In this document: in pieces, positions 3,767 through 64,000 of the stretch
Layout of the letters: each line of letters starts with the position of its first letter
Numbering within the stretch: the first letter of the stretch is position 1
Source of the DNA: Bdellovibrionales bacterium
GTDB lineage: Bacteria; Bdellovibrionota; Bdellovibrionia; Bdellovibrionales; JAUICD01
DNA length: 64,000 nucleotides
Assembly: GCA_965197425.1 (NCBI GenBank)
Contig: CBDANC010000012.1
Coordinates: 153,077 to 217,076, forward strand
Reading direction: 5' to 3'
Notes under the pieces: generated by a model
Seen by the model: only the letters and a program-made list of their open reading frames with translations
Databases searched by the model: none
What the model was told of the DNA's origin: nothing
Made by a program: the position numbers and the translations under genes

Positions 3767-3884
3767 GGGATCGGCATCAGTGTCCAGAGCTGGGCAACCA
3801 TCAAGCTAAAAAGTGCCCTGGCTTCACTTGTACTTTGTACAATCGTTACGTCAGTCCATTTTTTAACTTGATTCGGAAGACCTT
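3767..3884 (-). repeat. Family B element (long-hairpin type)
   Basis: Reverse complement AAGGTCTTCCGAATCAAGTTAAAA...TTTTAGCTTGATGGTTGCCCAGCTCTGG...GATCCC matches copies at 30611 and 63848. Confidence 0.9.
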
Positions 3885-3957
3885 GAAAGGTTCAAGCAAA
3901 GCGTCCCAGAGTTAATGCTGTTGCCATGAACCTTATACCATAATGACAAAAAACGGT

Positions 3958-4103
3958 GAAGCCGAAAGGCTTCGAAAGCCCCCCGCAGGGGAATACTACG
4001 CCCGTAGGGCGCCACCTTGCAGGTGGAGGCATTTTTAATATTATCTAAAACACACATCATATTTTGTACTCCTTCAATTAAAAAATACTACGCCCGTAGG
4101 GCG
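3958..4103. repeat. Family A element with extra mini-hairpins; overlaps the pdxJ stop
   Basis: GAAGCC-GAAA-GGCTTC, CCCC-GCA-GGGG, CGCCC-GTA-GGGCG twice, CCACCT-TGC-AGGTGG; core nearly identical to 2105-2175. Confidence 0.9.
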
Positions 4104-4816
4104 GTTTTCATTTTTTTTACAGATGCTTTCAAGCCGCCATTTAAAGCATCACAGATCAAAAAGTGTCCTATGTTAACTTCCCTCAAATGAGGTAGCTTTG
4201 CTATTACCTTAGCATGCTCAAAGTCCAATCCATGTCCAGCATGAACCAATAAACCAAGTGAATGTGCCTTTAAAGCACTACCTTTAAGTCTCTGCAGCTC
4301 AGCCTTTTTGTTCTTAACCAAACAAAATCTTCCAGTATGAAGTTCAACTGCATCAGCACCAACATTCTTCGAAGCAACAACTTGTTTTATCACCGGGTTT
4401 ACAAATAAACTTACCTTAATACCAGCTTTTTTCAAAGCTGTAACAACTCTTTTGATTTTAACTTTGTTTTGAAAAACATCTAAACCACCCTCCGTAGTAA
4501 GCTCTTTTCTCTTCTCTGGTACCAAACATACCCAGTCAGGACAAAGCTTCAGTGCAATCTTAAGCATGCCACTAGTACAAGCCATCTCTAAATTAAGCGA
4601 AACTCTAGATTTACTTTTGATAAGGTGCTTTTTGATCTGAAAAAGATCTTCGTCCTGAATATGCCTTCTGTCCTCTCGTAAATGAACAGTGATTTGATCA
4701 GCACCACCCAAGGTAGCACTCTTAACCTGCTCCACTATATCAGGATACCAAGTAGTGCCACCTCTAACCTGCCTCAAAGTGGCTGCATGATCCAAATTGA
4801 CCCCAAGTAGGATCAC
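4088..4816 (-). CDS. pdxJ: Pyridoxine 5'-phosphate synthase
   Basis: LGVNLDHAATLRQ, HLREDRRHI, LTTEGGLD, HAGHGL, NIGH. Confidence 0.97.
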   Translation of the reverse strand: MILLGVNLDHAATLRQVRGGTTWYPDIVEQVKSATLGGADQITVHLREDRRHIQDEDLFQIKKHLIKSKSRVSLNLEMACTSGMLKIALKLCPDWVCLVPEKRKELTTEGGLDVFQNKVKIKRVVTALKKAGIKVSLFVNPVIKQVVASKNVGADAVELHTGRFCLVKNKKAELQRLKGSALKAHSLGLLVHAGHGLDFEHAKVIAKLPHLREVNIGHFLICDALNGGLKASVKKMKTALRA

Positions 4817-6171
4817 AGATCACACTCCTTTAGAAATTCACAGATTTCCTTAGATGCTTTAGATACCTTATCCTTATTAGAACCTTCAACCAAAACTCTT
4901 AAAATTGGTTCTGTACCAGAATATCTGATAAATATCCTACCCTCTTTTCCTAAATCCTTTTCTATTTTAGATATAAGATCACTATACCCAGACACACTAT
5001 CCAAAGACACTTTATTAGAAACTTTTAGGTTAGTTAATACCTGAGGGGTTTCAGGAACAAGCTTTCTTAAAGCACCAAGCTTTATTCCTTGATTAACCAT
5101 AATTGCAAGCACATTTAAAGCTGTTACCAAACCATCACCAGTTGTAGAGTGATCTAGAAAAATTATATGCCCGGACTGCTCTCCACCTAATGTAAGATTT
5201 CTTTTTTTAAGCTCACTAATGACATACCTATCACCTACATCAGTAGTCACAACATCTATACCATTATCAGACAAAAATTTTCTAAAACCAAAACTACTCA
5301 TGTGAGTTGCTACAATTTTATTGTCCACAAGCTTATTTTTTTTCTTTGCTTCCAACGCACAAATAGCCATTATATGATCGCCATTTAAAATACCACCCGA
5401 TTCATCACACATAATAACTCTATCACCATCACCATCTAAACTAATCCCTAAATCAGCAGAAGTTTCTTTCACAACCTTAACAAGTCCCTCTGGATACAAA
5501 GCACCACAGTTGTCATTAATGTTAAATCCATTAGGCTCATTATTTATCACCTTTACCTTAGCCCCAAGCTCTTCAAATATTCTAGGACCTACCTTGTAAC
5601 AAGCACCATTAGCACAATCTAATACCAAAGAAATTCCATCCAAACTCAAATTACTAGGAAATGTATTTTTGACAGAAACAATATACCTACCAGAAGCATC
5701 ATCTATTCTCTTAGTTCTACCAATCTCATCTTCTAAAGAAACCTTTGAGCTAAAATCCTCTTTTACCAACTGCTCTATCTTTTCTTCCAATGTTTTAGAA
5801 ATCTTAAAACCATTAGAGTCAAAAATTTTGATTCCATTGTCATAGTAAGGATTGTGAGAAGCAGATATAATAATACCAGCATCAACTCTCATACTTTGAG
5901 CCAAAAAACCAATCCCCGGAGTACTAAGAGGCCCTACTAACAAAACATCTATACCCATAGAATTGAAGCCACTAGCCAAAGCCATCTCTATCATATAACC
6001 AGATAAGCGAGTGTCCTTGCCTATCAACACCTTACGTCTCTTGGTAGTATTACTGCGGTTCTCTCTACCCCTTAAAATCAAACCAATGGCCTGCCCTACC
6101 TTTAAAACAAGCTCAGGAGTAATAGGATATACATTAGCCCTAGAACGAATACCATCCGTACCAAATAACAT
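4813..6171 (-). CDS. glmM: Phosphoglucosamine mutase
   Basis: FGTDGIR, SASHNP, DGDGDR, GGEQSGH, RYSGTEP. Confidence 0.97.
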   Translation of the reverse strand: MLFGTDGIRSRANVYPITPELVLKVGQAIGLILRGRENRSNTTKRRKVLIGKDTRLSGYMIEMALASGFNSMGIDVLLVGPLSTPGIGFLAQSMRVDAGIIISASHNPYYDNGIKIFDSNGFKISKTLEEKIEQLVKEDFSSKVSLEDEIGRTKRIDDASGRYIVSVKNTFPSNLSLDGISLVLDCANGACYKVGPRIFEELGAKVKVINNEPNGFNINDNCGALYPEGLVKVVKETSADLGISLDGDGDRVIMCDESGGILNGDHIMAICALEAKKKNKLVDNKIVATHMSSFGFRKFLSDNGIDVVTTDVGDRYVISELKKRNLTLGGEQSGHIIFLDHSTTGDGLVTALNVLAIMVNQGIKLGALRKLVPETPQVLTNLKVSNKVSLDSVSGYSDLISKIEKDLGKEGRIFIRYSGTEPILRVLVEGSNKDKVSKASKEICEFLKECDL

Positions 6172-6242
6172 CCAAAACCTCCCTAATCTAAGCTTCTTAA
6201 TAATACTTTACTTCTAGTACCCTAAGTCAGTTTAATAAACAA

Positions 6243-6329
6243 GTGCCTACGGCACAGGTATTTAATTGGTAAAGTACAAAATGTGATGTATGTTTTAGCT
6301 ACTGTTAAATGCCTCCACCCGCAGAGTGG
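6243..6329. repeat. Family A element, single unit (opposite orientation to the 2105 copy)
   Basis: GTGCC-TAC-GGCAC AGGTATTTAATTGGT...AAATGCCT CCACCC-GCA-GAGTGG. Confidence 0.88.
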
Positions 6330-6332
6330 TGG

Positions 6333-8288
6333 TTAGACGGTTGCTGGGGCTTTTGCGCCTATGGGTGTTTTTTTGTCTTCCTTTTCTTTCTCCAAACACT
6401 CTTCTCTTTGGATATTTTCTTCTTTTAGAGTTTTATCTCTTTTACTTCTCAAATTCTCGATATCCTCTGAGGTTCCACCTTTCATAAGCAGGTTAACCTC
6501 ATCCCCGTCTATAGTTTCATATTCTAGCAGAGTTTTTGCTATATTCTTTAAGATTTGTAAGTTTTGTTTTAGAAGATCTTGTGCTTTTTTATGTCCTTCA
6601 GTGACAAACTTTCTCACCTCGGTATCTATTTCTCTAGCCGTACTATCTGAGTAATCTTTTTCATGACTAGTTTGCATGCCTAAAAACACAGGGTCGTCCC
6701 GTTTTTCAAAGTGAAGAGGACCTAGCTTTTTACTCATCCCCCATTCACATACCATTCGCCTTGCTATTTCAGTAGCCCTTTCTATGTCATTGCCAGCACC
6801 TGTGGTGTAGTCCTTAAAAATAATTTCCTCTGCTGCTCTTCCTCCAAATAAAAAGGCTATCATATTGTGTGCCTTTTCCTTGGTTAGATTCAGCCTCTCT
6901 TCTTCTGGCAAAGTTTGAGTAACACCCAAAGCCATTCCTCTTGGAATAATTGTAACTTTGTGAATAGGATCAACAGAGGGCAAAAGCTTTCCTACCAAAG
7001 CATGTCCTGCTTCATGGTATGCAGTAATCTCTTTATCCTTTTTACTTACCACCATTGACTTTCTTTCAGCTCCCATCAACACCTTGTCTTTTGCAAGCTC
7101 CAGATCTTTCATATCAACTATGTTTTTATTAAACCTAGCTGCCAATAGGGCCCCTTCATTTACCAAGTTTCTTAAGTCAGCACCTGAAAATCCAGGGGTT
7201 CCTCTAGCTATGGTTTCCAAATCAACTTCTTTAGCAGTAGGAACTTTTTTGGTATGCACTTCTAAGATACTTTTTCTACCTTTAATATCTGGTTTGTTTA
7301 CAACCACTCTTCTATCAAAACGCCCTGGCCTTAAAAGTGCAGGATCCAAAACATCAGGTCTATTAGTTGCAGCTATTAAAATAACTCCTTCATTACTGGC
7401 AAAACCATCCATTTCCACCAAAAGCTGGTTTAGAGTTTGCTCCCTTTCATCGTGGCCTCCACCCATACCAGCACCCCTGTGCCTTCCAACTGCATCTATT
7501 TCATCTACAAAAATTAGGCATGGTGCATTTTTCTTTCCCTGTTCAAATAAATCTCTAACTCTAGAAGCACCAACACCCACAAACATCTCTACAAAGTCAG
7601 AACCTGAGATAGAAAAAAATGGAACCCCTGCCTCCCCAGCTACAGCCCTTGCAAGCAAAGTTTTACCCGTTCCAGGAGAACCTACCAATAAAACACCCTT
7701 CGGTATAACCCCTCCAAGCCTGGTGAATCTCTTTGGATCTTTCAGAAACATTATAATTTCATTTAACTCTTCTTTAGCCTCATCAACTCCAGCCACATCC
7801 TTAAATGTAATCTTGTTTTTATTCTCAGTAAGAAGCCTTGCTCTACTTTTACCAAAGCTCATAGCCTTCCCACCACCAGCCTGAAGCTGCCTGAAAAACA
7901 AAACAAATAATACGACTATGATAATCAGAGGAAGCCAACTTATTAACATACTCTGAAAAAAACTCTTTTTGTCATTACTCACATAATTTGGAATAATGTT
8001 ATTTTCCTTTAAAAACTTAAAACTCTCATCACCAGTGTTACCAATTATACTGAAACTGGTTCCACCATATTTGTCCTTAGCTTCCTGTGTAAATTCTCCT
8101 GTAATTTCACCTGTTTTTTCACTAAAAGTGACACTTGAAACATCTCCACTCAAAACCGCAGTGTGTAGTTTCTGGTAGTTAAAATCACTTACCAGTTCAT
8201 CTTGCTTTTTAGAGTAAAATTGAAAACTTAAAATAACTATAAGAAACAAGAACATCCATAGTGCAAAAGTCTTCTGAGCTTTTTTCAT
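6333..8288 (-). CDS. ftsH: ATP-dependent zinc metalloprotease FtsH
   Basis: Two TM segments, [16 protein letters not shown] region [23 protein letters not shown]. Confidence 0.98.
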
Positions 8289-8381
8289 AAACTAAAAATT
8301 TCCCTATTCGCTACTTCCACATTACTCTCTTACCGGATTGCCCGACTGAAATACCTTTAGTAACTCTTATCGTATTTATAC

Positions 8382-9311
8382 CTACAAAGCTGGGCAACTT
8401 TCAGTTCTTGCTGAGACCTTCAGTCTAACATGTGTTGTATTAACTAACCACAACCTTTTTGCAACCTTAAACTTAAAATTTTTTGTTTTACTCCTAAGTC
8501 TTTTCTCTATCTCATGTATTTGAGAGTGTGAATAATTTTTAATGTTTTTCAATAGCATGTATTTGGCTATGGCCTCATGTCTTAAATCAATACTAAACAG
8601 CGACATTGTATGCCTGTCTAAACCATCCTTAGTAATACAAAAGCTTAAATCTAGACGCTTAGCATTGCTAATTAAATCAAGAGATCTATGCATATTTTTG
8701 CTTGCCTTAGGGGCCTTCGTTTTAAGTGCATTAAGCCACACATTTCTAACCCAGTTTCTGATATTGGAGTTATCTTTGTTTGAAGGATCTTCTAAAAATT
8801 TGGGTTTAAATTTTAAAAGTTCATCCTTCGAAAAATTTAAAAGTGGTCTAAAAATATTATTATCCATGATCCTCATTGATACTAATCCATTTGCACCAAC
8901 CCCTCTTATAAGTCTTAAAATCCTTGTCTCCAAAAGATCTTCCATATGATGTGCTGTTACTATTAAAGCCTTTTCCCTTTTTGCTATACTTTTTAAAAAC
9001 TTTAATCGCTCCCTCCTACACTCTGTTTCAGTCTTTAAAGTTGTTTTGTGCTTTTTATAAAAAAACTCAAAGTCGTAAAGGGCTGTCTGTTTTTTTACAT
9101 GCAAGTATGCATTTTTTCTGTATGAACTTATGCCACCATGATGAAAATGAGCTACAGCTATTGTAATAGGGAACTTCTTTGATATGTGGTGCATAATCTT
9201 TAACAAAGCCATAGAGTCAAGCCCACCAGATACCGCAAGGATCATGTTGGTGTTTAAAAGATCGTACTCTAAGATTGTCTTTATAACCTTTTTTTCTAAT
9301 GCATTATACAT
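8382..9311 (-). CDS. tilS: tRNA(Ile)-lysidine synthetase
   Basis: AVSGGLDS PP-loop, TAHH.ED..ET, RPLL, EDPSN; upstream of ftsH. Confidence 0.92.
   Translation of the reverse strand: MYNALEKKVIKTILEYDLLNTNMILAVSGGLDSMALLKIMHHISKKFPITIAVAHFHHGGISSYRKNAYLHVKKQTALYDFEFFYKKHKTTLKTETECRRERLKFLKSIAKREKALIVTAHHMEDLLETRILRLIRGVGANGLVSMRIMDNNIFRPLLNFSKDELLKFKPKFLEDPSNKDNSNIRNWVRNVWLNALKTKAPKASKNMHRSLDLISNAKRLDLSFCITKDGLDRHTMSLFSIDLRHEAIAKYMLLKNIKNYSHSQIHEIEKRLRSKTKNFKFKVAKRLWLVNTTHVRLKVSARTESCPAL
8386..8420 (-). repeat. Miniature family B/C element inside the tilS 3' end
   Basis: Reverse complement AAGGTCTCAGCAAGAACTGAAAGTTGCCCAGCTTT carries both family end motifs. Confidence 0.65.
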
Positions 9312-9562
9312 TCATGCTTCCTAAAGAATAAATGCCTTCTAACACATAAAACCTCTACAAGATAGGAGTCAAAAAGAGTATATCAGTCCTAAATATTTTA
9401 CCTATAGTTTTTGTATCTAGACCTAGGTGTTGAATAAATATGTACACCTCCAGGTTATTATACATAATCTGAGATATTTTTGATAAGATTTGACGAGGTT
9501 TGAACAAGACTTAGAGCATAAGTATTTTTCTTTGAAAAGATAAATTTATAAGGGTAACTACA

Positions 9563-10540
9563 TTGAACATCTTTAAAAGACTTCCATTTTTTAGAAGTAG
9601 CGGCACCAGACAGAGCTTACGAGAGTCTATTAGAGAGTCTGGTTCTGAATTTTTAAGTGGCACTCGTATCAGGAGTTCTTATAACAAACCTCCATTCGAA
9701 AAATTTTATATTTATGCATTTTTGCTTCTCTTATCTTTTAGTATATCTGACATTGCTACATTGATTTTAAGAAACAAGATGATACCTGAAGAGGGTAAAT
9801 CTAGGAGTTTAAGAAGACCCAGACTCGCTAATAACAACCTGAACTTTCAAAACACATTGGATAGAAATATTTTTGATCCTACAGGAGAAATACCTCCCCC
9901 TTTTGCTAGTGAAGGTGTGGAAAATCTACTTATGGATCCTGTTCCTTCCTCACTACCTTTGAATTTAATAGGTACAATTGTACATGCAAATCCTGCTAGG
10001 TCGATTGCCACGATACAGGTACAAGGAAATAAAATTATCCCTTTTTCTGCTAGCGATAGCATAGGTGATATGGCAACTATGGTTAGAGTTGAAAGGAGAC
10101 GTGCTATATTTAAAAACTTAAGCAGTAATCAATTGGAGTTTATTCAGATAGACACTGATAGTTTGGCATTAGTGCCTGCAATTAAAAGTGTTCCAAAGGC
10201 CGACCAGGTTGCATCAAGCCAGAACAACCACCGCATAGACAGAGCTGATTTGCACAGATACATGGATGATTTACCTAACTTATTAATGCAAGCTAGAGCT
10301 ATCCCAAATGTTGTGGACGGCAGAGTACAAGGATTTAAAGTAGTAGATATTCAAGAAGGAAGCATATGGGAAACCTTAGGATTAAAAAAAAATGATGTGA
10401 TTAAAGGGGTAAATGGCGAAGCAGTAAATAGCCCTGCTAAAGCTATGGAACTTTACAATACACTAGCTGGTGATAGCGATGTAGGAATAGACATAGAACG
10501 AGACGGTAAGTCTGAAACGTTAAACTATACGATTTTTTAA
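9563..10540 (+). CDS. gspC: Type II secretion protein C (HR + PDZ domains)
   Basis: TM segment, LNLIGT HR domain, C-terminal PDZ (GLKKNDVIKGVNG); precedes gspD. Confidence 0.88.
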   Translation: MNIFKRLPFFRSSGTRQSLRESIRESGSEFLSGTRIRSSYNKPPFEKFYIYAFLLLLSFSISDIATLILRNKMIPEEGKSRSLRRPRLANNNLNFQNTLDRNIFDPTGEIPPPFASEGVENLLMDPVPSSLPLNLIGTIVHANPARSIATIQVQGNKIIPFSASDSIGDMATMVRVERRRAIFKNLSSNQLEFIQIDTDSLALVPAIKSVPKADQVASSQNNHRIDRADLHRYMDDLPNLLMQARAIPNVVDGRVQGFKVVDIQEGSIWETLGLKKNDVIKGVNGEAVNSPAKAMELYNTLAGDSDVGIDIERDGKSETLNYTIF

Positions 10541-30515: not shown

Positions 30516-30604
30516 AAGGTCTTCCGAACGAGGCAAAAATAAGGAGGCTATGCCTACTTATTTTGCTGAGTGGTTGCCCAGCTTTCTACCACGATGCTAA
30601 TCCC
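30516..30604 (+). repeat. Family C element (short-hairpin variant of B)
   Basis: AAGGTCTTCCGAA CGAGGCAAAAATAAGGAGGCTATGCCTACTTATTTTGCTGAG TGGTTGCCCAGCT...CACGATGCTAATCCC. Confidence 0.9.
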
Positions 30605-30610
30605 GACACA

Positions 30611-30727
30611 AAGGTCTTCCGAATCAAGTTAAAAGATGGATTGGTGAAATGTAAGACGAAGTCCAAATGTAACCAAGACATCTTTTAGCTTGATGGTTGC
30701 CCAGCTCTGGAACACGATGCTGATCCC
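30611..30727 (+). repeat. Family B element
   Basis: Nearly identical to 63848-63962. Confidence 0.92.
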
Positions 30728-30738
30728 GGCACATTGAT

Positions 30739-30786
30739 CAGGCATTCTGGCAATCAGGCAATCGAGCAAACTGGCAGACAGGTAAT
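30739..30786 (+). repeat. Degenerate 8-bp tandem repeat (six units, consensus CAGGCAAT)
   Basis: CAGGCATT CTGGCAAT CAGGCAAT CGAGCAAA CTGGCAGA CAGGTAAT; another CAGGCAAT at 31169-31176. Confidence 0.8.
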
Positions 30787-30787
30787 G

Positions 30788-30859
30788 GTCTCTTATTTTA
30801 AAAAAATATTTCCTCCTAGATAAAAACTATAGAGCAAATATTTTTTTAAAATAGGAGAC
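30788..30859 (+). promoter_or_regulatory. 24-bp inverted repeat covering the RBS of the four-helix-bundle gene
   Basis: GTCTCTTATTTTAAAAAAATATTT / AAATATTTTTTTAAAATAGGAGAC, 23 of 24 complementary plus one T-G; AGGAGA at 30853-30858. Confidence 0.75.
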
Positions 30860-30867
30860 AACATAGT

Positions 30868-31161
30868 ATGAAAAAATTAAAAACTTACCAGCTTGCAATT
30901 AACTTTTATCACAAAGCTGAAAACCTACACCTAAAGGAACCGCTTAGAAGCCAATTCCAAAGAGCTATCCTAAGCATTGTGCTAAATATTGCAGAGGGAA
31001 GTGCGAAGCCAACAGCTAAAGATAGAAGGAAGTTTTATTCTATAAGCCTTGGGTCACTTAGAGAAACACAGGCAATACTAGAAATCATAGACCACAAAAA
31101 CCTAATAGAAAAAGCAAATACACTGGGAGGATATCTATACAAACTATGCAAAAATACATAA
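30868..31161 (+). CDS. Four-helix-bundle protein (23S rRNA IVP / Avd-like fold family)
   Basis: LRSQFQRA..SI.LNIAEG, F..ISLGSL.E signature. Confidence 0.9.
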   Translation: MKKLKTYQLAINFYHKAENLHLKEPLRSQFQRAILSIVLNIAEGSAKPTAKDRRKFYSISLGSLRETQAILEIIDHKNLIEKANTLGGYLYKLCKNT

Positions 31162-31190
31162 GATTAATCAGGCAATGATCTGCTTTTTTC

Positions 31191-31270
31191 AAGGTCTTCC
31201 GAACGAAGTCAAACAAATGGACTGGTATAACGAGTGTACGAAGTCCAAGTGAACCCAAGCTCACCTTTAG
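31191..31270 (+). repeat. Truncated family B element
   Basis: AAGGTCTTCCGAA...ATGGACTG...GTACGAAGTCCAAGTGAA; lacks the 3' end motif. Confidence 0.8.
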
Positions 31271-42560: not shown

Positions 42561-42728
42561 TTGAACCCCCAGGTGTTGCGTGCACGTATATTACAATGAT
42601 CATGCTTTCTAACGGTTTTTGCAATGATGCAAATAGTCGCACACGACTATAGTTTTATTGGGAAATCATCCGTTGTAATAAACTATGTTTGTGATAAACA
42701 CCACAGGTGTGTAGAGGACTATGAGTTT

Positions 42729-42814
42729 GATGACACGTGTTGTGGTGCTGGACAACCACGCGGCAAAATAATTAGGCAAAGCCTCCTTATTTTTTGCCTC
42801 GTTAAGAAGGTCTT
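42729..42814 (-). repeat. Degenerate family C element
   Basis: GGACAACCACGCGGCAAAA...AGGCAAAGCCTCCTTATTTTTTGCCTC matches 50704-50755. Confidence 0.82.
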
Positions 42815-42819
42815 TGGAT

Positions 42820-48127: not shown

Positions 48128-50632
48128 ATGTTTTTTAGTAAACTAAAAAACTTTAGGTTCATGGTTTTATCTATTAGTTTTTTATTAGTTTCTTGTAATG
48201 ATTTTAAGTATAAAATTCCACTTTCTTTTGATCGTTTGGATGATGATACTGCAAATATACCTTTGGATGTTACTAATCCTGATATGCTTTCAAGGGATGT
48301 GCAGTCAGGTAGTCACTATAACCATGAAATCTCTAGGGACGATGTAGAAAAATATTTTAAGGATGCAGATCTTTCCACTCTTGAAATTACAGAAGGGCCG
48401 AATTGGCTTAGTTATGAGTTTGACAGACCTAGAAACCAAGCTTCTTTTTCAGGCAGCATACCTGAACTTCAAGCTAGCGAGATGCCTAAAACAATTGTAG
48501 TCAAAGGTGTAATTGAAGATTTGGAAGGTGCAGATCATAACTGGGAGTTTCCTCTTGTTATTAAAGAAGATACATCTCCTGTGATTTATACAAGGGATAT
48601 CTTATTATCCTTAGGCTCAGAGTTTAGGTTTAATTTTACTGAGGAAATGATAAGTGATTTAACTCAAGCTGAGGTGGATAATGAACAGTATGAAATAACT
48701 GTGATGGAGAAACCAGATTGGCTGGAAAAAGAGAATCAAAATAGTTTGTTGGGTATCGTACCTCATGTTGGTTTTAATGGCGCTGTGATAAGTGGCTTCA
48801 TTCATGATAGCACTGGAAATAAGTCTGAATGGTCATTTAATCTTTTAGCTCCAAGTACTTCTTTGAGTGTAAGTGATCACATTACAGAGGCTGGCAGTCC
48901 GTTTTCTGATCAGATATCTCTTAGAAAAGATGGGGTGCCTGATATAACGGAAGATAGACTTTCAGATGTAGAACTATATGTAACCAACCTACCATGTTGG
49001 TTGGGTTACACCTATGACTATGCTAACAAAACCATAACTTTTAGTGGTGTCCCTACAGATGATGACCTTGGAGATAATATTGTAGCTGGTGTGGTAGTAA
49101 ATGGATACAATGTATCATCCGGCTGGTCTTTTGAGGTTCATGTTATGGAGGATATTGCTCCAACAATTTCCTCATTGAGCATAGATGGAACAACCCCTAG
49201 TAGAAACCAAACCCCAACATTACTTGTAGGTTTAGAAAGATCAAACAAAAACACAGTTGTAAAAATCCATTCTGACCCTTCTTGTGAGATCGACATAGGT
49301 ACACTGTTACTAGATGATGTAAAAAAACAGGCTAGTATTACAATAGAGTCTAGGTTGTCTGAAGGAAACCATAACTTGTATGCCTCAGCAACTGACTTAT
49401 CCAACAAAAACATTAGTTGCTATGAATTGCCAGAACCCTATGTTGTGGATTTGAACAAGCCAGTTGTATCTGGTCTTGTAATTGAGACCTTGGAGCAAAA
49501 AAACAATGACAAAAATCCAAATTTAACTGTGCACTTTAATGGTGCTGACAGAGGTAGTGTTGTAAAGATCTTTGATAAAAATCAGTGTGTTAATCCTATA
49601 GCACAGACAAGGTTAGAGGATTCTACTGACAAAATAGATATTAAGTTAAATGATCTTCAAGATGGCGTACATACTTTTTATGCTAGAGTAATTGACTTTG
49701 CTGGAAATGAATCTAGCTGCATAAAAACTCCTGGTCCTTACAGATTAGATACCGAGGCCCCTTCTATTTTGTCCGCAGCTTTATTGGATACTACTCCTAA
49801 TACTGGTAAGACACCTACATTTAAAGTTACACTGCTATCTAGTTCTGGCTCTCATGTAAAGCTTTTCAGTGACGAAGCTTGCAGGAATGAACTTGGAATC
49901 GCAAGTGTTGGAGGTATAACTACTGCTGATGTGTTGGTAGATAAAGAGCTTAACGATGGCACACATACCATTTATGCACAAGCTTACGACTCTGCTGGGA
50001 ACGCCTCTTCTTGCACCCCCGGTGATAGACCATATGTTGTAGATACTTTTGAACCTGCATGCAGTATTACTGGTTTATCTGATTCCTATACACCTACTAA
50101 AGTTAAAACTTTCAATTGGACCGGGTGTGGTGAGTATCGATATATTGTTACAAGCGGTAGAGCACTTGATGACTCCGTAGTTTGGAGTAGATGGTCTACA
50201 CAATCATCTGCTCAAGTTGATGGTTTACAGAATGTAGATGATACATACTACCTGCATATTCAGGGTAGAAATGTAGATGAACTAGGCAATGTATCTGAGA
50301 TTTCTAGTTCTGTTGCTAGCACTCACATTGATGCCAAAAAACCTGAAGTGCTAGGTTTAAGAGACGATTCCATCACTCAGGTACAGAATCGAACATGGAG
50401 CTGGAGATGTGATGAAAGAAACTGTGTTTATCGCTATGAGATAACCACCTCTCCTACTGCACCTTCAATGACACATAAATATTCTGGGGTTACCAGTGTA
50501 AGCAAAAACTGTGGTGAAGGTACTTACTATTTACATGTGCAGGCCAAAGATTTAGCTGGCAATGAATCTTTAGTTGTAACCAAGAAGGTAGAGATGACCA
50601 GAAACGATGACCTTGATGACACGTGTAGGTAA
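48128..50632 (+). CDS. Ig-like repeat surface lipoprotein
   Basis: Lipobox LVSC; putative-Ig (P.WL...SG.P) and Big-type (DG.H..YA...D.AGN.S.C) repeats. Confidence 0.75.
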   Translation: MFFSKLKNFRFMVLSISFLLVSCNDFKYKIPLSFDRLDDDTANIPLDVTNPDMLSRDVQSGSHYNHEISRDDVEKYFKDADLSTLEITEGPNWLSYEFDRPRNQASFSGSIPELQASEMPKTIVVKGVIEDLEGADHNWEFPLVIKEDTSPVIYTRDILLSLGSEFRFNFTEEMISDLTQAEVDNEQYEITVMEKPDWLEKENQNSLLGIVPHVGFNGAVISGFIHDSTGNKSEWSFNLLAPSTSLSVSDHITEAGSPFSDQISLRKDGVPDITEDRLSDVELYVTNLPCWLGYTYDYANKTITFSGVPTDDDLGDNIVAGVVVNGYNVSSGWSFEVHVMEDIAPTISSLSIDGTTPSRNQTPTLLVGLERSNKNTVVKIHSDPSCEIDIGTLLLDDVKKQASITIESRLSEGNHNLYASATDLSNKNISCYELPEPYVVDLNKPVVSGLVIETLEQKNNDKNPNLTVHFNGADRGSVVKIFDKNQCVNPIAQTRLEDSTDKIDIKLNDLQDGVHTFYARVIDFAGNESSCIKTPGPYRLDTEAPSILSAALLDTTPNTGKTPTFKVTLLSSSGSHVKLFSDEACRNELGIASVGGITTADVLVDKELNDGTHTIYAQAYDSAGNASSCTPGDRPYVVDTFEPACSITGLSDSYTPTKVKTFNWTGCGEYRYIVTSGRALDDSVVWSRWSTQSSAQVDGLQNVDDTYYLHIQGRNVDELGNVSEISSSVASTHIDAKKPEVLGLRDDSITQVQNRTWSWRCDERNCVYRYEITTSPTAPSMTHKYSGVTSVSKNCGEGTYYLHVQAKDLAGNESLVVTKKVEMTRNDDLDDTCR

Positions 50633-50768
50633 GCATAGCTTCCTTATTTTTGCCTCATTGAGAAGACCTTGATGAAAAGGATCAGCATCGTGTTAGAGAG
50701 CTGGGCAACCACTCGGCAAAAAAAAGTAGGCAAAGCCTCCTTATTTTTTGCCTCATTCGGAAGACCTT
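50615..50768 (-). repeat. Family C elements: one full (50679-50768) and one partial (about 50615-50670)
   Basis: Reverse complement AAGGTCTTCCGAATGAGGCAAAAAATAAGGAGGCTTTGCCT...TGGTTGCCCAGCTCT...CACGATGCTGATCC; TTTTCATC precedes both copies. Confidence 0.9.
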
Positions 50769-57447: not shown

Positions 57448-58205
57448 AAAATGCCATAGAATGTATTGGGCTAAAAAAAACTTTTGATAATAATGAAAAA
57501 GTTTTAAATGGAATAAATCTTAAAATAGAAAAAGGTTCTATAACAGTCATTTTAGGTTTAAGTGGAGCTGGTAAAAGTATCCTATTAAAACATTTATTAG
57601 GCCTGATGCTACCAACTGATGGAGTGATAAAAATACTTGGGAATGATCTACAAGCTCTTAACCCAGAACAATTAAAGGAACTAAGAGGAAGATTTGGAGT
57701 TTTATTTCAAAACTCAGCTTTATTCAATGACATGACAGTAATAGAAAATGTTATGTTTCCTCTAAAAGAAAAAAATAGATCCACCAAATCATCAAATTAT
57801 GATTTATATAGCAAGGCTTCTAAAATGCTAGAGTCCCTTGGAATAGAACCCATTCAATTTGAAAAGTTACCATCTCAAATTAGTGGTGGTATGCAGAAAA
57901 GAGTGGGATTAGCACGAGCTTTAGTGATTCAACCACAAATTTTGTTCTATGATGAGCCTGTAACAGGGTTGGACCCTATTACAACATCCATGGTCAACAA
58001 ACTAATTGTAAACACACACAAAAAAAGTTCAGGACTTACGTCTGTAATTGTTTCTCATGATCTACTATCATCGCTCTATATAGCCGATAAGATTGCGATG
58101 ATACATGATGGGAAAGTGTTGTTATTTGGCACTCCTTTGGAGTTTAAAAACAGCAAAAACTCACATGTAAGAAGGTTTATGGAAACACATTATGAGAACG
58201 CTTGA
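57444..58205 (+). CDS. mlaF: MlaF-family ABC ATPase
   Basis: GLSGAGKS, SGGMQKRVGLARA, YDEP.TGLDP. Confidence 0.92.
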   Translation: MKNAIECIGLKKTFDNNEKVLNGINLKIEKGSITVILGLSGAGKSILLKHLLGLMLPTDGVIKILGNDLQALNPEQLKELRGRFGVLFQNSALFNDMTVIENVMFPLKEKNRSTKSSNYDLYSKASKMLESLGIEPIQFEKLPSQISGGMQKRVGLARALVIQPQILFYDEPVTGLDPITTSMVNKLIVNTHKKSSGLTSVIVSHDLLSSLYIADKIAMIHDGKVLLFGTPLEFKNSKNSHVRRFMETHYENA

Positions 58206-59457
58206 ATTTCGTGTTGGACTTTTGGTTATAACAATTTTGAGCATAGTTGTATCTATGCTTTTTGTTGTTGGAGATAATTTTGGTAATTTTGGAGCCAATC
58301 AAAGCTTTTATTTTTTTCTAAATGATGCAAATGGAATTACTAAAAAGAGCAAAGTAAAATTAGCTGGCTTAGATATTGGTTATGTAGAAGATATTGACCT
58401 CGTAAAAAATAGAGCAAAAATAAACCTAGTTCTCAATAGAAAAGATATAACCTCTGATGCATTCGTAGAGATTAGAGATGATGGATTACTTGGAGATAGA
58501 TATATAACCATAGTAAACGGCACTTCAAATGAGTTATTAAAAACCAATCAAGAGATAACCCAGGTTGTAGATGGAGGAACTTTTGATAGAGCGGTGGATA
58601 AAATTGCATCTGTTGCAAGTTCAATAGAACTTATACCGGAACTATTAGGTGAATCTAAGAACACAAAATCTCCTTTAATAAACACAATAAAAAATTTGGA
58701 AAACATGACTCATGCATTAAGTGAAGTTACAACCAAACACAAAGAAGAAATATCAAATCTATTAGTTTCAATGAATCGCATAACTAGTAGAGTAGATAGT
58801 GGATTAGAAGGTTGGGATGAATCATGGAATAGAATAATGAAGTCAGTTGACAACATGGATATTGCATTTGAAAACATAAAAGATATAACAGAAAAAATAC
58901 AAAATGGTGAAGGGGCCTTGGGTAAGTTAATCTACGAAGATGAAACTGTGGATAACATTAACACAGCTGTTTCAGGTATCAGTGAACTTGTTGAACAGTC
59001 TAATCAAATAAAAACATTTTTGGATTTAAGGGGCGATTATTTTACATCTGATTTGAGGGCAAAAACAAATCTATCTATTGTAGTACAACCAGGTCCAGAC
59101 AGACAATTTGAAGCCTCCATAGTTGATGATCCTATAATTGGAAATAACAGTAAAATAAGATTTAGTGCATTGTATGAGCAAAAATTATATGACCTTGCAA
59201 TTAAGGCAGGTATTATAGAAAACACTGTAGGGCTTGGATTAAGTTATTTTGCTCTTCCAAAGCTAAAACTAACTTTAGAGTCATTTAAGCTTGCTGAGAG
59301 TTTACCAAGGTTACGAAGCTATTTAAAATATGGTTTTACTAATAGTATATATTTAGTAAGTGGAATGGATAGACTACTACAAACCCCTTCTTTTTTTGTT
59401 GGGCTAGGCATAATGCTTTCAAACGATGATCTGAAAACACTATTTCTCTTACCTTGA
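58192..59457 (+). CDS. mlaD: MlaD/MCE-family protein with helical and C-terminal beta-rich extension
   Basis: E.RVG, MCE motifs V.LAG..IG.V and GLLGDRY. Confidence 0.85.
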   Translation: MRTLEFRVGLLVITILSIVVSMLFVVGDNFGNFGANQSFYFFLNDANGITKKSKVKLAGLDIGYVEDIDLVKNRAKINLVLNRKDITSDAFVEIRDDGLLGDRYITIVNGTSNELLKTNQEITQVVDGGTFDRAVDKIASVASSIELIPELLGESKNTKSPLINTIKNLENMTHALSEVTTKHKEEISNLLVSMNRITSRVDSGLEGWDESWNRIMKSVDNMDIAFENIKDITEKIQNGEGALGKLIYEDETVDNINTAVSGISELVEQSNQIKTFLDLRGDYFTSDLRAKTNLSIVVQPGPDRQFEASIVDDPIIGNNSKIRFSALYEQKLYDLAIKAGIIENTVGLGLSYFALPKLKLTLESFKLAESLPRLRSYLKYGFTNSIYLVSGMDRLLQTPSFFVGLGIMLSNDDLKTLFLLP

Positions 59458-59465
59458 GGGTTACA

Positions 59466-61169
59466 ATGTCTTCTGACTTGAAATGGATTATATTAAAAAA
59501 TCATGAAATACTAGGGCCTTTTACTACCTCTCAAATAATAACTAGCATATATGAAGGAAAATACAGACCAAATGATCAAGTTAGCATGAGAGTAAATGAC
59601 TCTGCTACCACAGTATCTGATGACAAAGGTTCTAATAGTTATTTTTTAAATTGGCGAAAGTTAGCTGAAGTATCTGAGTTTGCAATATTCAGAGGTAATC
59701 AAGAAGATACACTGGTGAATGACACACAAGATGACTGTACTGATCCAGGAGATGGGTATACAGAACCAAGTATCGATGACACAAAAGTAACTGACTTTAG
59801 TTATAATGATAGTGGAACAGGGAAAGTTAGTAGAGATGGCCATTATCAAGTATCGTCTAAAAAAACCAGATTAATTGTAAATACAATTTTGGTTTCAGCT
59901 GCTGTGATATTATTAGGTTTAGCTGTATATAAGAGGATGGTTAAAATTTCAAATGAGGACAAAGATTGGCATAAAATAGGGCTAAGCCATAAAAAAATTG
60001 GAAACTACAATAATGCCATTACCAGTTTAAAAGAAGCATATAAAAATACACCCTCTGATATTGATGTAGCTTTTAACTATGCTGAAGTTTTAATAGAAAG
60101 AGGGCAGTTAAATAAAACATCAGAAGTTTTAGATAAAATAACCGCAGCCGGAGCAGAACAAAGAAAGTTAAATTTACTTGGTATAATTAATTTGAAGAGG
60201 AAAAACTTACATGAGGCCAAAAGTTTATTTAACAAAGCTTTGGATATTGATCCATCATATACACCTGCACTCATCAACTCTGGAATTGCAAATTTACATG
60301 CTTTTCAATATACAAACTCACATAGTAAATTCGAGTTAGCGTATCGATCAGGTTCTAGGGATCCGATACTGATAATGAGCAAATTTTTAGCTACTGTTAA
60401 GCTGTTTGAACAAACAAAAAATCCCACACTGCTGCAATATATGAAAAGAGTTTTAGCATCAGCTTTAAATGCACAAACTGGATATAGAATTCACTATCAC
60501 TTGGCATTATCTTATTTAGAAATTTTACTAGGTAATACTGAGGCTGCTGAAAAATGGTTTACAAATATTATTGTTTTAGATGCTGATTTAGAACCTAGTG
60601 ATTTCTTGTATGATTTAGAAATCTTTAGAGATCATTTAAGCTGGGATACTATGTATTCACTAAGCACAGAGTTTGATGATTCGTTAGCTGATGAACCTAG
60701 AATTGAGGCTATAAAGGGTATATTGCTGCTTAAAAGCAAAAAATACGACGAAGCTGAAAGCACTTTATCCAACGCAATTTTACGAAACAGTGAAGACATA
60801 GGTATTAGATTACTATACTCCTATCTAAAAATGAAGTTGGGAGTTTTATCAGAAGCCAAAGCTAATATAGATCTTGTTTTACACGCTGACCATCCTCTAT
60901 TAGTTTTAATAAAATCAAAACTATGTACTGAAAGCCAAGAAAATTGTCCTAGTTTTTTTGAAGAGATGTCACAAACTGATCACTACAAATTACAAGGTAT
61001 TACTGGTTTAGCTGAGCATTTTATAAGTGCTAAACAATATAGTAAAGCCAGTAGTTTAGTAAACACAGGTCTTGAAGCTTCAGACTCATACATCCCGTTG
61101 CTTATTCTTAATCAAAAACTTGAAAGCATAAGTAAAAGTCCAATACGAGTGGAGTACCCACCAAAATAA
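59466..61169 (+). CDS. Membrane-anchored TPR protein with an N-terminal GYF-like domain
   Basis: W......LGPF, one TM, several TPRs. Confidence 0.7.
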   Translation: MSSDLKWIILKNHEILGPFTTSQIITSIYEGKYRPNDQVSMRVNDSATTVSDDKGSNSYFLNWRKLAEVSEFAIFRGNQEDTLVNDTQDDCTDPGDGYTEPSIDDTKVTDFSYNDSGTGKVSRDGHYQVSSKKTRLIVNTILVSAAVILLGLAVYKRMVKISNEDKDWHKIGLSHKKIGNYNNAITSLKEAYKNTPSDIDVAFNYAEVLIERGQLNKTSEVLDKITAAGAEQRKLNLLGIINLKRKNLHEAKSLFNKALDIDPSYTPALINSGIANLHAFQYTNSHSKFELAYRSGSRDPILIMSKFLATVKLFEQTKNPTLLQYMKRVLASALNAQTGYRIHYHLALSYLEILLGNTEAAEKWFTNIIVLDADLEPSDFLYDLEIFRDHLSWDTMYSLSTEFDDSLADEPRIEAIKGILLLKSKKYDEAESTLSNAILRNSEDIGIRLLYSYLKMKLGVLSEAKANIDLVLHADHPLLVLIKSKLCTESQENCPSFFEEMSQTDHYKLQGITGLAEHFISAKQYSKASSLVNTGLEASDSYIPLLILNQKLESISKSPIRVEYPPK

Positions 61170-61175
61170 AAAACA

Positions 61176-61976
61176 TTATCTGGTATTAACCAGTGATTTT
61201 ATATTTTCACCTGCCAGCATTCTTACGAGTAAGCCTAATGTTTTTAATACCGAGCCTGTTACATCTATCATTCCTTGATGTTTTTCACCTGTTCTAAGTC
61301 TCTCTTGCTCTATTTTATCACACACACTACCCATACTGCGATTGGTCTCTTTTAAACGATCTTTTAACTCCAAAAGTCCCTTTATCTCAAATTCATTTCT
61401 TACAAACTGAATAAGCCAATAGAAATTTCTTATAGTTTTTCTCAAACTATGGTAGTCCGAATAGGTTAATCTGACCTGTGCTTCACCACCCTTTTCTATC
61501 ACATCGATTGCCTGTTCTAGGCGTGATTTTAAAAACGCATGTAGCTCAACTGTGGACGTACTGATAAAGTCCTTTTTAAAATCAAGCTTTATTATATGCT
61601 CTAGATTATCACCCAACAATTTATCGATAAATTTATTTGTTTTTCTGGCTTGTTCTTCTACCTTAGCCTTTGCTATAACTGCATCTTTTAACTTCCCCAA
61701 CTTAACTACCAGTTTGTTGAGATCACGTGGAATAGAGTGAGATATATCAAACATAAAATATGCTGCTCTTAACCTTTGTGCATGTCGCCTCATCTGCAGA
61801 AGTTTCCTAAAATCATCTGTGCTGGCATACTTGCCAGAAACAAGCTTTGATAAAAGCTCTTTAAATTCTACTAGTTTCTCTAGGGAAAATGACTTTTCAA
61901 ACCTAGATACGCAGATATTAAATATAAAAGACATATCACCGTCTAAAAGATCCAGTATCTCACCGAACGATATCAC
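61176..61976 (-). CDS. CHAD-domain-like protein
   Basis: R...QRLRA, LG.LKD, YHSLRK..R, MG...D pattern. Confidence 0.6.
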   Translation of the reverse strand: MISFGEILDLLDGDMSFIFNICVSRFEKSFSLEKLVEFKELLSKLVSGKYASTDDFRKLLQMRRHAQRLRAAYFMFDISHSIPRDLNKLVVKLGKLKDAVIAKAKVEEQARKTNKFIDKLLGDNLEHIIKLDFKKDFISTSTVELHAFLKSRLEQAIDVIEKGGEAQVRLTYSDYHSLRKTIRNFYWLIQFVRNEFEIKGLLELKDRLKETNRSMGSVCDKIEQERLRTGEKHQGMIDVTGSVLKTLGLLVRMLAGENIKSLVNTR

Positions 61977-62014
61977 CCTATGCTTTTTTATATCTTCTTT
62001 AATAAGACTCCCAA

Positions 62015-62331
62015 GTGCCTACGGCACAAGCATTTAGTTGGTGGAGTACAAAGTATAATTTTTGTTCTCACCTCCACAAACCGCCTCCACCCGCAGGGTG
62101 GTGCCTACAGCACGGGTATTTAACTGGCACCTTACAGGTGCAGGTATTTAATTAGTGGAATACAAAATATAACGTATGTTTTCGCCACCATCAAATACCT
62201 CCCCCGTAGGGGGTGCCTTACAGGCACTGCTATTAGCTGGTGGAGTACAAGATATGATTTATGTTTTACCACCACTAAATACCTCCCCCGTAGGGGGTGC
62301 CGAAGGCACAAACACCAGCACCCGTAGGGTG
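62015..62331. repeat. Family A cluster (three units plus fragments, nine mini-hairpins)
   Basis: GTGCC-TAC-GGCAC, CCACCC-GCA-GGGTGG, GCACCT-TAC-AGGTGC, CCCCC-GTA-GGGGG twice, GTGCCT-TAC-AGGCAC, GTGCC-GAA-GGCAC, CACCC-GTA-GGGTG. Confidence 0.92.
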
Positions 62332-62416
62332 TAAATCTAGTTGTAATGTACAATGAACACTACCCTGTTTCAAGCAATTTTGTTATCCTGACAGTACAGT
62401 AGAGGATAAGATTTTT

Positions 62417-63718
62417 ATGTTAGAGAACAGAACTCACTCTAAGAGCTCTATAAAGAATCGTGGAGTTGCCTTATTAATATCACTATTTAGCATAATGATG
62501 TTAAGTTTTATTGCAGTTGAGGTAAGTTACGATACTAGTATTGACTACATTATATCGAGCAAAGAGTACCATAAACTAAGAGCATATTATGCGGCTAAGT
62601 CTGGTGTAGAATTATCATTACTTAGAATTTCATTATATCAAAAGGCAGTATTTGCTTTAAATAACCTTCCTCCCGCACTGAAAGGTGTATTAAAAAAGAG
62701 TATGTTAAACATGATATGGAATTTCCCACTATCTTGGCCTATTACTTTACCCGCTGATTTATCTACTGTAGATAAACAAAGTATAGATGAAATTAGTGGT
62801 GAATCTCTTTTAGAAGGTGTTAAGTATGAAACCAAAATTACCAGTGAAGGTTCTAAAATTGATCTAACTTCTTTTACCTATGGCAAGCCTGCACTAGCCG
62901 ATGCCACCAAACAACAACTAGTAAGTCTATTTAGAAATTACTTAGACTCATTGGAGACAGATTCTCCATTAGAAGATGTAGACTATGAAAGAGTAATAGG
63001 AAATATTCAGGATTGGGTAGATCATGATGAAAAAAGTTTCGATAACAGAAGTGAATCTTCACTATATGAAGAAGAGAATTTACCCCCAAACAGAGCGTTT
63101 AGGACTGTCGAGGAATTAAGAATGGTAAGTGGGATTACCAATGATGTATTTAATTTTTTACTGCCTCATATAACAGTATATGGAGCAGCTGGTATTAACC
63201 CAAACAACGCAAGTGATATAATATTAGCATCCATTCATCCTAACATTACAGATCAAGTAGTGGCCCGTATGCATGACTACTTTGATCAAACAGGTCCTTT
63301 TAACGATGTGAATGAATTTTTTAATTTTTTAAGCAGATTTAATGTACCCACAAATGAAATAGAAAGGTCTAGTCTCTATTTTTCTGATACAGACGGAGAA
63401 ATAAATTTTTCAATAAAAAGCGTGGGGCAATCTGGAAGCATTAACAAAGAAATTCAGGTAGTGGTTTATGACAAAAGCAAGATAAGTGCTAAATTAGGGC
63501 TAAACCAAAACCCTCAAAATAATCCGGGGCAAAATCCGCCTGGTGGTGCAACACAACCTCCCTCCGGAGGCACTACAGCACAAAATCCCACTCCTGGAGG
63601 TAATCCAGGACAAAATCCGCCTGGTGGTGCAGGACAACCTACTCCAGGAGCTAATCCAGCACAAAATACTGCTCCACCGGATAAAAGGCCTACCATCATC
63701 TACTGGTACGAAAATTAA
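62417..63718 (+). CDS. gspK: T2SS minor pseudopilin K
   Basis: RG/VALL, AYYAAKSG, KIDL, DWVD.D, EEL.MV.G, INPN.A. Confidence 0.9.
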   Translation: MLENRTHSKSSIKNRGVALLISLFSIMMLSFIAVEVSYDTSIDYIISSKEYHKLRAYYAAKSGVELSLLRISLYQKAVFALNNLPPALKGVLKKSMLNMIWNFPLSWPITLPADLSTVDKQSIDEISGESLLEGVKYETKITSEGSKIDLTSFTYGKPALADATKQQLVSLFRNYLDSLETDSPLEDVDYERVIGNIQDWVDHDEKSFDNRSESSLYEEENLPPNRAFRTVEELRMVSGITNDVFNFLLPHITVYGAAGINPNNASDIILASIHPNITDQVVARMHDYFDQTGPFNDVNEFFNFLSRFNVPTNEIERSSLYFSDTDGEINFSIKSVGQSGSINKEIQVVVYDKSKISAKLGLNQNPQNNPGQNPPGGATQPPSGGTTAQNPTPGGNPGQNPPGGAGQPTPGANPAQNTAPPDKRPTIIYWYEN

Positions 63719-63722
63719 AACA

Positions 63723-64000
63723 AAGGTCTTCCTAATCAAACCAAAAAATGGATTTGTGAAATGATTGGACGAAGTCCAAATGTAGCCAAGACATTTTTTA
63801 GTTTGATGGTTGCCCAGCTCTGGAACACGATGCTGATCTAGTAACTTAAGGTCTTCCGAATCAAGTTAAAAGATGTCTTGGTGAAATGTAAGACGAAGTC
63901 CAAATGTAACCAAGACACCTTTTAGCTTGATGGTTGCCCAGCTCTGGAACACGATGCTGATCTAGTAACTTAAGGTCTTCCAAACGAGGCAAATAAGGGA
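63723..64000 (+). repeat. Head-to-tail array of family B, B and C elements (runs off the window end)
   Basis: Units 63723-63838, 63848-63962 and 63972->64000, joined by the identical linker TAGTAACTT. Confidence 0.93.

Follow-up and report, generated by a model that had tools for sequence, protein, structure and literature searches.

A gene-less hairpin repeat with paired ends and a single fixed insertion end in two genomes of a Bdellovibrionales genus

A 64,000-nt stretch of a Bdellovibrionales genome, the last 64 kb of contig C12 (CBDANC010000012.1, positions 153,077 to 217,076; hereafter the window), carries ten copies of a short, gene-less repeat whose two ends form the arms of one irregular stem, which inserts with a fixed 5′ end and a ragged 3′ end, and which recurs at about 180 loci across the genome. 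The genome that holds the window (assembly GCA_965197425.1, here G000) comprises 1.6 Mb in 15 contigs and is 99% complete. The only other genome of the genus, G001, is one contig of 1,600,901 bases with a median protein identity to G000 of 68.5%, and it carries an abundant repeat of its own, built on the same plan. Judged by sequence comparison, the two repeats are diverged homologous families. We propose, with about an even chance of being right, that this is a non-autonomous, one-ended single-stranded DNA (ssDNA) mobile repeat, copied into new sites by an HUH-like enzyme that acts in trans and has been lost, left unassembled or gone unrecognised. New in this analysis are the G001 homologue, the pairing of the ends, the polarity of insertion and the finding that no duplication of fixed length accompanies it.

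The unit measures about 95–165 nt and consists of a left end of the form AAGG-T-N5-NN-A, an inner hairpin, a right core of the form T-N6-CC-AGC and a tail, which is 27–31 nt long (about 29) in 70 of the 74 tandem junctions of G000 and falls into at least five sequence families. The original prediction had envisaged a conserved scaffold with exchangeable inner stems, and this description stands, but the two unrelated long hairpins that it placed in the scaffold (types B and C) are only two of at least four modules. Among 154 units, 71 carry module C, 37 module B, 20 module D and 19 module E, while seven hold other or nested modules; module D is module C plus an inserted segment, and types B and C have the stem foot and A/T tracts in common and hence are not wholly unrelated. 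Whole units nested within other units also occur. The inner stem is Watson-Crick paired in 334 of 518 cells, against 212 with shuffled partners (0 of 2000 shuffles), and its positions 2–3 alternate between tandem GA/AG (61 of 106 units) and ordinary pairs.

The ends that had been described as asymmetric pair with each other as the arms of a single irregular basal stem, in which the order G-C, G-C, T·C, C-G, T·T, T·T, C-G, C-G is followed by a 2-nt bulge and an A-T pair. Covariation and pairing were counted over 106 distinct G000 units and 76 G001 units. At least five of six basal pairs between left end and right core are possible in 100 of the 106, and the T·T/T·T loop is present in 88 and 81 of the 106 G000 units and in 76 and 74 of the 76 G001 units. 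The arms are exchanged jointly: a second end family in G000 (GGTGAG.. with GCCTG../GGCTG..) replaces both of them (240 versus 225.5 when shuffled, 0 of 2000 shuffles), and in G001 each of three left-end types goes with its own right-end type (299 versus 254, 0 of 2000). RNAalifold recovered the long stem, basal pairs included, from a 33-sequence alignment of both genomes. Here both partners vary in 20 of 24 pairs, and 95.7% of cells are paired, compared with 35–41% when slid; the structure was derived from the same alignment, which works in its favour. Within the G001 tail, no convincing covariation was found (best z = 3.5 among 192 column pairs). Two more specific pairings that had been suggested for the ends are not supported by these counts. 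The pairing of GTCTTCC with GGAACAC reaches six of seven positions in only nine of the 106 distinct units and seven in none, and the TGG/CCA pairing of the proposed three-way junction, complete in 81 of the 106 G000 units, is formed at only one of three positions in all 76 G001 units. The ends do lack perfect terminal inverted repeats, as had been noted: mismatches interrupt the arms, and the one on the right is set back about 29 nt from the 3′ end.

The family is by no means confined to the window. A search with nhmmer at 12 bits or more located 149 left ends and 154 right ends in G000, as opposed to one and none in the reversed genome, and a stricter, k-mer-validated count recognised 177 arrays, with 228 marks of the left end and 183 of the right. 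Arrays with both ends make up about 1.2% of the genome. In G001, a k-mer census of 1,600,000 of the 1,600,901 bases revealed a repeat with the order AAGG(T/C)C(T/C)TTC, hairpin, GTTG(CC/TG)CAAC and tail, the latter 28–31 nt long in 101 of 115 junctions; an earlier blastn search with one copy against 60 relatives had given no match and had overlooked this diverged family. A covariance model built from both genomes finds at least 150 copies in G001 and 103 in G000, with no match in the other 59 of the 61 genomes searched, and at E ≤ 1 it matched none of three other genomes of the family. A non-circular check of homology is provided by a hidden Markov model built from G001 alone, whose three best matches in G000 (E 0.003–0.03) all fall on copies of the family, and which at 12 bits or more found nothing in the reversed genome, nor in the 400 kb taken from each of G002 and G004, two genomes of the next genus in the same family. 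The sites occupied in G000 and G001 are mostly different, with 38 orthologue neighbourhoods in common against 31 expected. Further afield, a genome contig collection gave two matches, both chance matches in coding DNA, and two scans of a metagenome contig collection gave none. Scans of a viral contig collection gave 0, 45 and 7 matches; the model scored none of the 45, and no such hairpin was seen by eye in the 7. A blastn search of plasmids and phages returned nothing better than E ≥ 3, and no account of the family was found in a literature search whose scope left out subscription journals, ISfinder and supplements. In G000 itself, contigs C2, C3, C5, C8, C9 and C10 are without a copy. These small contigs have few open reading frames (ORFs), or hold a transposase of eukaryotic type (C9) or genes resembling those of phages (C10), and probably lie outside the chromosome.

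The two ends of the arrays behave very differently. Of the 177 G000 arrays, 165 have an AAGG end, whether intact or degenerate, as their start and eight begin inside a unit, but only 29 finish at the end of a tail, with 58 ending inside the tail (a class that takes in rare tails missing from our tail library) and 90 in a stub or a partial next unit. The same polarity is seen in the 98 G001 arrays, 86 of which start at the AAGG end and 23 of which finish at the tail end, and units are joined head-to-tail. The 5′ flank shows a loose H-T-M bias, with G at −3 in 2 of 105 arrays, T at −2 in 79 and A or C at −1 in 96. Empty sites are available for comparison, the copy at 3760–3884 of the window being inserted into a dispersed repeat of another family (window ~3690–3935, C15:87253, C15:426571 and C6:6665; 83–92% alike in the closer copies). 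Relative to the three empty paralogues, this insertion is clean and without target duplication, and the same holds for C12:75042 compared with the empty site C6:46532. Flanking DNA was locally lost or replaced at two insertions in G001 Rpn genes, and a 10-nt duplication was seen at one site. These data bear directly on whether the repeat might be an ordinary transposable element of the miniature inverted-repeat kind (MITE), moved by a DDE transposase that generates AAGGTCTT-like target duplications. This reading could draw on the second AAGGTC stub in which 26 of the 177 arrays end, on the flank/tail duplications of 5–10 nt in 7 of 105 arrays (2.1 expected at 5 nt or more) and on the arms themselves, which amount to a degenerate inverted repeat. 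Nevertheless, 77 of the 105 arrays match at 2 nt or fewer, the 3′ arm is sub-terminal by about 29 nt, and AAGGTCTT is absent from the empty sites and is therefore element DNA, not target; the empty sites thus largely refute a MITE, which we consider very unlikely.

Several observations suggest recent movement. Identical units are found at separate places in groups of 3, 2, 2, 2, 2 and 2 among the 154, and the window copy at 30611–30734 shares 100% identity across 119 nt with C6:21213. In public sequencing runs, a single low-depth contig of a related strain (depth 7.85) reads 40 different letters at the position of the C12:93857 array of G000, and another single low-depth contig has 146 nt where G000 has 458; uncovered parts and a 162-nt skip within a tandem, a possible repeat artefact, were set aside in this comparison. 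At C13:71580–71700 of G000, the last 10 nt of a T3-type tail correspond to host flank that is conserved in G001. Further T3 copies end in the same way, a hint that host DNA can be acquired by tails and carried onward.

The repeat folds asymmetrically, the plus strand giving the more stable structure in 87 (as RNA) or 88 (as DNA) of the 106 units. The apices of type B are GNA or ANA triloops closed by C-G (cGNAg/cANAg) in 40 of 45 parsed G000 units and in 45 of 71 G001 apices, and an internal loop that sets GNA opposite GNA, with N variable on both sides, is present in 41 G000 units and in 48 of the 76 from G001. GNA/GNA zippers, like tandem G·A pairs, are motifs of DNA. GNA and GNNA mini-hairpins are far more stable as DNA than as RNA, according to a published study (PMC13037366). 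A functional structured RNA of use to the host, be it a ribozyme, a cis-regulator or a small RNA, would fit the strong covariation, the RNA fold z of −4.2 at 30611–30735 and the enrichment of the repeat just past stop codons. Its orientation relative to flanking genes is mixed (43, 26, 24 and 18 of 111), however, which argues against a cis-acting RNA, and many copies are truncated, sites differ largely between the two species and some insertions lie within Rpn genes. Rfam 15 detected only a tRNA in the window, and the best E values of the copies (0.06–0.35) fall far below family thresholds, in line with the original reading, which recognised no named family; neither an HDV-like nor a hammerhead core was seen on inspection. 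We hence regard a functional RNA as highly improbable, and of the structured mobile non-coding RNA (ncRNA) or ssDNA element originally suggested, it is the mobile, gene-less element with an ssDNA-like route that is upheld, while a functional ncRNA or ribozyme lacks support given the mixed orientation and the mostly DNA-type caps.

Starts within −2 to +7 nt of a same-strand stop codon account for 26 of 113 arrays, against a background of 2.7% (p = 3e-17), and selection on where insertions survive may explain this enrichment. Nine of the 113 abut the conserved ATG of an opposite-strand gene, and seven of these nine carry a CCT variant of the end, compared with 25 of the 104 others (Fisher p = 0.002). 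The complement of this variant places AGGAAG a few bases before the ATG, and is hence likely to act as a ribosome-binding site.

The combination of one fixed end, a ragged opposite end and a preserved hairpin makes spread as ssDNA through a copying enzyme likely. To the observed copy number, covariation, polarity, weak target preference, lack of a fixed duplication, head-to-tail arrays and presence/absence differences, the HUH-like model adds an enzyme, a nick and an intermediate. The enzyme would recognise the folded basal stem, with the T·T/T·T loop in the role played by the bulge in repetitive extragenic palindromic (REP) elements, and would nick 5′ of AAGG, whereupon the freed AAGG 5′ end could be joined to a target 3′-OH after H-T(-M). 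Copying would halt at or before the tail end or run into the next unit, and repair, sometimes through microhomology, would resolve the product. Tail ends that resemble targets would allow new units to land behind old ones, producing mixed arrays, and inner hairpins might be exchanged through nested insertion and template switching. The model borrows from two known systems. In the cited descriptions of REP elements, a stem mismatch is required for TnpA binding and amplification of bacterial interspersed mosaic elements (BIMEs) is modelled as rolling-circle-like (PMC3333891; PMC8266576), and one-ended transposition in which one end stays fixed is outlined for the IS91 family (PMC3189936).

Several results weigh against this model. 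Profile searches of G000 and G001 returned no match for Y1_Tnp (PF01797) or RVT_1, with controls matched in both cases, and none for Phage_integrase (PF00589) or Rep_trans; a stand-alone small GIY-YIG gene was not found in either genome, each yielding a single match of ~610 aa. No gene is flanked by the repeat on both sides in both genomes, save for one housekeeping-type pair. Nearest-neighbour folding of single copies mostly gives other local folds at the ends, so that the basal stem rests on covariation, and the apices of type C bear their R-N-A triloop on the minus strand (31 of 32), which indicates that folding is not limited to one strand. A replication-strand bias is absent in G001 (64 versus 54), and the 33 versus 61 of G000 is confounded by gene orientation. 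Lastly, a strict tetranucleotide target such as that of IS91 or IS608 is not seen. The claim that a rolling-circle/HUH or retro mechanism suits the repeat better than a MITE is borne out for an ssDNA or rolling-circle-like route, but neither an HUH enzyme nor a reverse transcriptase (RT) was found in G000 or G001.

Other searches for a mobiliser covered further enzyme classes. A profile search of G000 gave no IS110, and no match was obtained for the Y2/IS91 profiles PF04986 (G000) and NF033538 (five genomes), for which the controls gave no match either. Paralogue censuses showed no multi-copy family of transposase-like ORFs, although DDE families were not searched by profile, and a motif-regex screen for HUH, RT and recombinase proteins gave nothing convincing but was insensitive enough to miss a serine resolvase. 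From 1058 orthologue pairs we filtered 192 shared proteins (basic, no membrane segment, 90–480 aa, at most 80% identical), and a Pfam scan of 170 of these contained no transposase and left 19 without a family. The missing RVT_1 match bears on a retro-element, in which reverse transcription at the target would begin from the CCTT 3′ end of a minus-strand transcript, leaving one sharp end and a truncated opposite end, and the plus strand would be a hairpin cDNA. Target-primed reverse transcription of the minus strand predicts the same end polarity as the HUH-like model, and to that extent also counts against the latter; the occasional short duplications are compatible with it, and UG27 RT arrays, according to a preprint, consist of structurally conserved but sequence-diverse units that template hairpin cDNA (bioRxiv 10.64898/2026.09.22.753630). 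Yet the units are dispersed genome-wide, not beside an RT, and in mixed orientation to genes, and we deem a retro-element quite doubtful.

That both genomes, including the single-contig G001, yielded no known mobiliser may also be taken to mean that no dedicated enzyme exists. The hairpin would then stall replication or repair, and host template switching, single-strand annealing and perhaps an Rpn nuclease or a serine resolvase would copy it to new sites. Mosaic and nested units, tails that run into mid-hairpin and the local deletions or replacements in the G001 Rpn genes fit such a process. Rpn/YhgA-like (PF04754) genes number one in G000 and 16, 16 and 19 in G001, G002 and G004, while another 27 genomes from the order have none; the repeat interrupts at least two of the G001 copies. 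Together with a stand-alone serine resolvase, Rpn genes are present in four genomes of the family that have high-copy modular repeats, and not in G003, and RpnA is reported in one study to promote RecA-independent template-switch joining (PMC5350276). Against this, the co-occurrence spans two genera only, the resolvase has no repeat ends at its flanks, and RpnA is described in that study as non-specific and without preference for cruciforms (PMC5350276). Furthermore, the sharp 5′ end, the target bias and a T·T/T·T loop kept across ~68% protein identity point to specific recognition. On balance, we judge spread by host repair unlikely, although not negligibly so. Activity in two species ~68% identical, in which no known transposase, recombinase or RT was found, may alternatively point to a new or hijacked enzyme. 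A bolder reading, which we entertain as a tentative possibility, is that of a self-propagating ssDNA hairpin replicon of ~125 nt, built of DNA-specific motifs: GNA triloops, tandem G·A pairs, the GNA/GNA internal loop and the T·T/T·T basal loop. Its driver would be either a strand-transfer enzyme of a new class or a housekeeping enzyme that it has hijacked, and the replicon would incidentally provide host genes with ribosome-binding sites.

The serine resolvase (G000 C12:4669–5388; G001 1095237–1095929) is 77% identical in the two genomes and lies beside a dCTP-deaminase-like gene; both genomes are without a Phage_integrase (XerC/D-type) match, and the resolvase might stand in for chromosome dimer resolution. 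G002 and G004 have a different high-copy modular repeat, arranged in tandem arrays and inverted pairs, with 590 and 142 matches to one 13-mer; it often adjoins 7-mer tandem repeats and has a few matches on contigs C1, C4, C11 and C13 of G000. In G001, two repeats of about 36 and 29 copies resemble CRISPR arrays, and a 1583-aa ORF at 1277042 appears Cas9-like by eye.

All ten copies first listed in the window were found in place, although several of their limits have been revised and the unit runs ~8–10 nt past the 3′ end originally given. On the minus strand, a full type-B unit at 3760–3884 (82 bits) comprises a left end at 3872–3884, the inner hairpin, a right core at 3789–3798 and a tail of ~28 nt. 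A head-to-tail pair on the plus strand begins with a full type-C unit at 30516–30610, with its left end 5 nt past the stop codon of a rodA-like gene and its tail at 30583–30610, and continues with a full type-B unit at 30611–30734 (right core 30696–30705, tail 30706–30734; 88 bits). The copy at 31191 proved to be a fusion, in which a 3′-truncated type-B unit on the plus strand (31191–31256; left end and part of the hairpin, right core absent) is joined to an inverted left end of the second type on the minus strand (31257–31267, AAGGTGAGCTT), read from the sequence and of the same end type as the L2 family. The type-C unit at 42718–42815, on the minus strand, has a degenerate left end (42806–42815), a right core at 42747–42756 and a T2-type tail. 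Also on the minus strand, a full type-C unit at 50671–50768 has its left end against the ATG of an opposite-strand hydrolase gene and, as few other copies do, shows a duplication between flank and tail (8 nt); the second unit of this tandem, at 50606–50670, is partial and retains a left end, half a hairpin, a fragment of T2 tail and an AAGG stub. At the end of the window, a plus-strand run consists of a full type-B unit at 63723–63847, which begins 4 nt past the stop codon of a T2SS-K-like gene, a second full type-B unit at 63848–63971 (DNA fold z = −4.0) and the start of a third, type C-like unit at 63972–64000, cut by the contig end.

Between the copies at 30611 and 31191 lies a plus-strand gene for a four-helix-bundle protein (23S_rRNA_IVP; 30868–31161, Pfam PF05635, E = 7.5e-17). 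As a candidate mobiliser it was rejected: it belongs to a separate cassette and has no tblastn hit in repeat-bearing G001. This cassette (window 30735–31190) is present in 18–19 copies in G000, with 7–8-nt tandem repeats at its flanks and an upstream hairpin, and behaves like a separate mobile unit; several of its copies adjoin the repeat family. A second modular repeat family, with hairpins capped by C-GTA-G or C-GCA-G, occurs in tandem and in both orientations at ~2029–2197, 3992–4097, 6240–6331 and 62012–62330 of the window, and two 75-nt coding repeats (80% alike) at 63520–63675 encode the proline/glycine-rich C-terminus of the T2SS-K-like protein.

How small bacterial repeats spread without a partner transposase is an open question, raised for CGTC repeats in an earlier study (PMC3733652). 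The family described here provides an unusually clean case: its copies run to hundreds in two small genomes, of which G001 is a single contig, covariation defines a recognition structure, the fixed end has been mapped, and the genes common to both genomes among which a mobiliser could hide form a short list. The repeat also reshapes gene boundaries, through its abutment on start codons and a ribosome-binding-site-like end variant. Were a host enzyme or a new class of enzyme to move it, DNA would have a further, new way of moving, which might also yield a compact tool for single-strand insertion; should the enzyme instead be an HUH transposase that was lost or left unassembled, the repeat would be a well-characterised new REP-like family of modest interest.

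Among known systems, the sites of integrons invite comparison on account of their irregular single-strand hairpins, and the repeat could be imagined as escaped attC sites on which a tyrosine recombinase acts as folded ssDNA. One attC-like Leptospirales site begins AAC-N4-AAGGT, and this register recurs at the start of the G001 tail. However, attC sites, in the cited description, have paired R″/R′ boxes (AAC...GTT) around L boxes (PMC3607928), and here such AAC/GTT boxes around the hairpin are absent, as are an AAC at a fixed left position, gene cassettes and a PF00589 match in either genome. Pattern scans stayed at chance level, after which attC identity, its defining features lacking, was dropped; we see only the slightest chance of it. 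The Ssn-related repeats (NTS/dRS3 and CGTC-REPs) recognised by SsnA GIY-YIG nucleases are also high-copy hairpins bound as ssDNA, but as characterised in the cited study they are ~30 nt long, bear the tag CGTC and lie on either side of a small GIY-YIG gene (PMC11893778), of which no counterpart was found here. UG27 RT ncRNA arrays share units of ~125–165 nt with conserved structure and diverse sequence, an asymmetric internal loop and gain or loss of units, but according to the preprint they lie beside a three-gene RT locus in prophages (bioRxiv 10.64898/2026.09.22.753630), whereas the present family is dispersed and no RT was found. Compared by description, the BOX elements of Streptococcus (boxA-boxBn-boxC) likewise have paired fixed outer modules around exchangeable inner ones and affect gene ends and starts (PMC3049150); they differ in their boxB tandem, in place of which our repeat has one of several alternative inner hairpins, and in lacking its head-to-tail arrays with a ragged end.

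The closest parallels are with two other groups. On the one hand, REP elements, BIMEs and REPINs, together with their TnpA-REP (RAYT) transposases, are described in the cited accounts as imperfect, gene-less hairpins that lie between genes in their hundreds and have a mismatch conserved in the stem, a strand-asymmetric fold, mosaic tandem arrays and frequent sites just past stop codons (PMC3333891; PMC8266576; PMC3733652). The family differs from them in its longer single hairpin (65–130 nt), swappable inner modules, 29-nt tail, single fixed insertion end and head-to-tail arrangement, in contrast to the inverted pairs of REP; a GTAG/CGTC tag was not found, the foot being preceded by (A/C)AA or AAG, nor was a Y1 transposase in either genome. 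On the other hand, members of the IS91 family and their one-ended miniatures (IS801) are, in the cited description, without true terminal inverted repeats and have one essential fixed end, a variable other end and read-through (PMC3189936), and the fixed end, the variable end and the lack of target duplication are all found here; unlike them, the family shows no strict tetranucleotide at target or end, its whole unit is one hairpin and its copies number in the hundreds. By the features tested, the repeat belongs neither with MITEs and attC sites nor with Ssn repeats and known RNAs, and, while the tag, RAYT and tetranucleotide tests make it a member of neither group, by analogy it functions like REP/BIME elements and IS91 miniatures.

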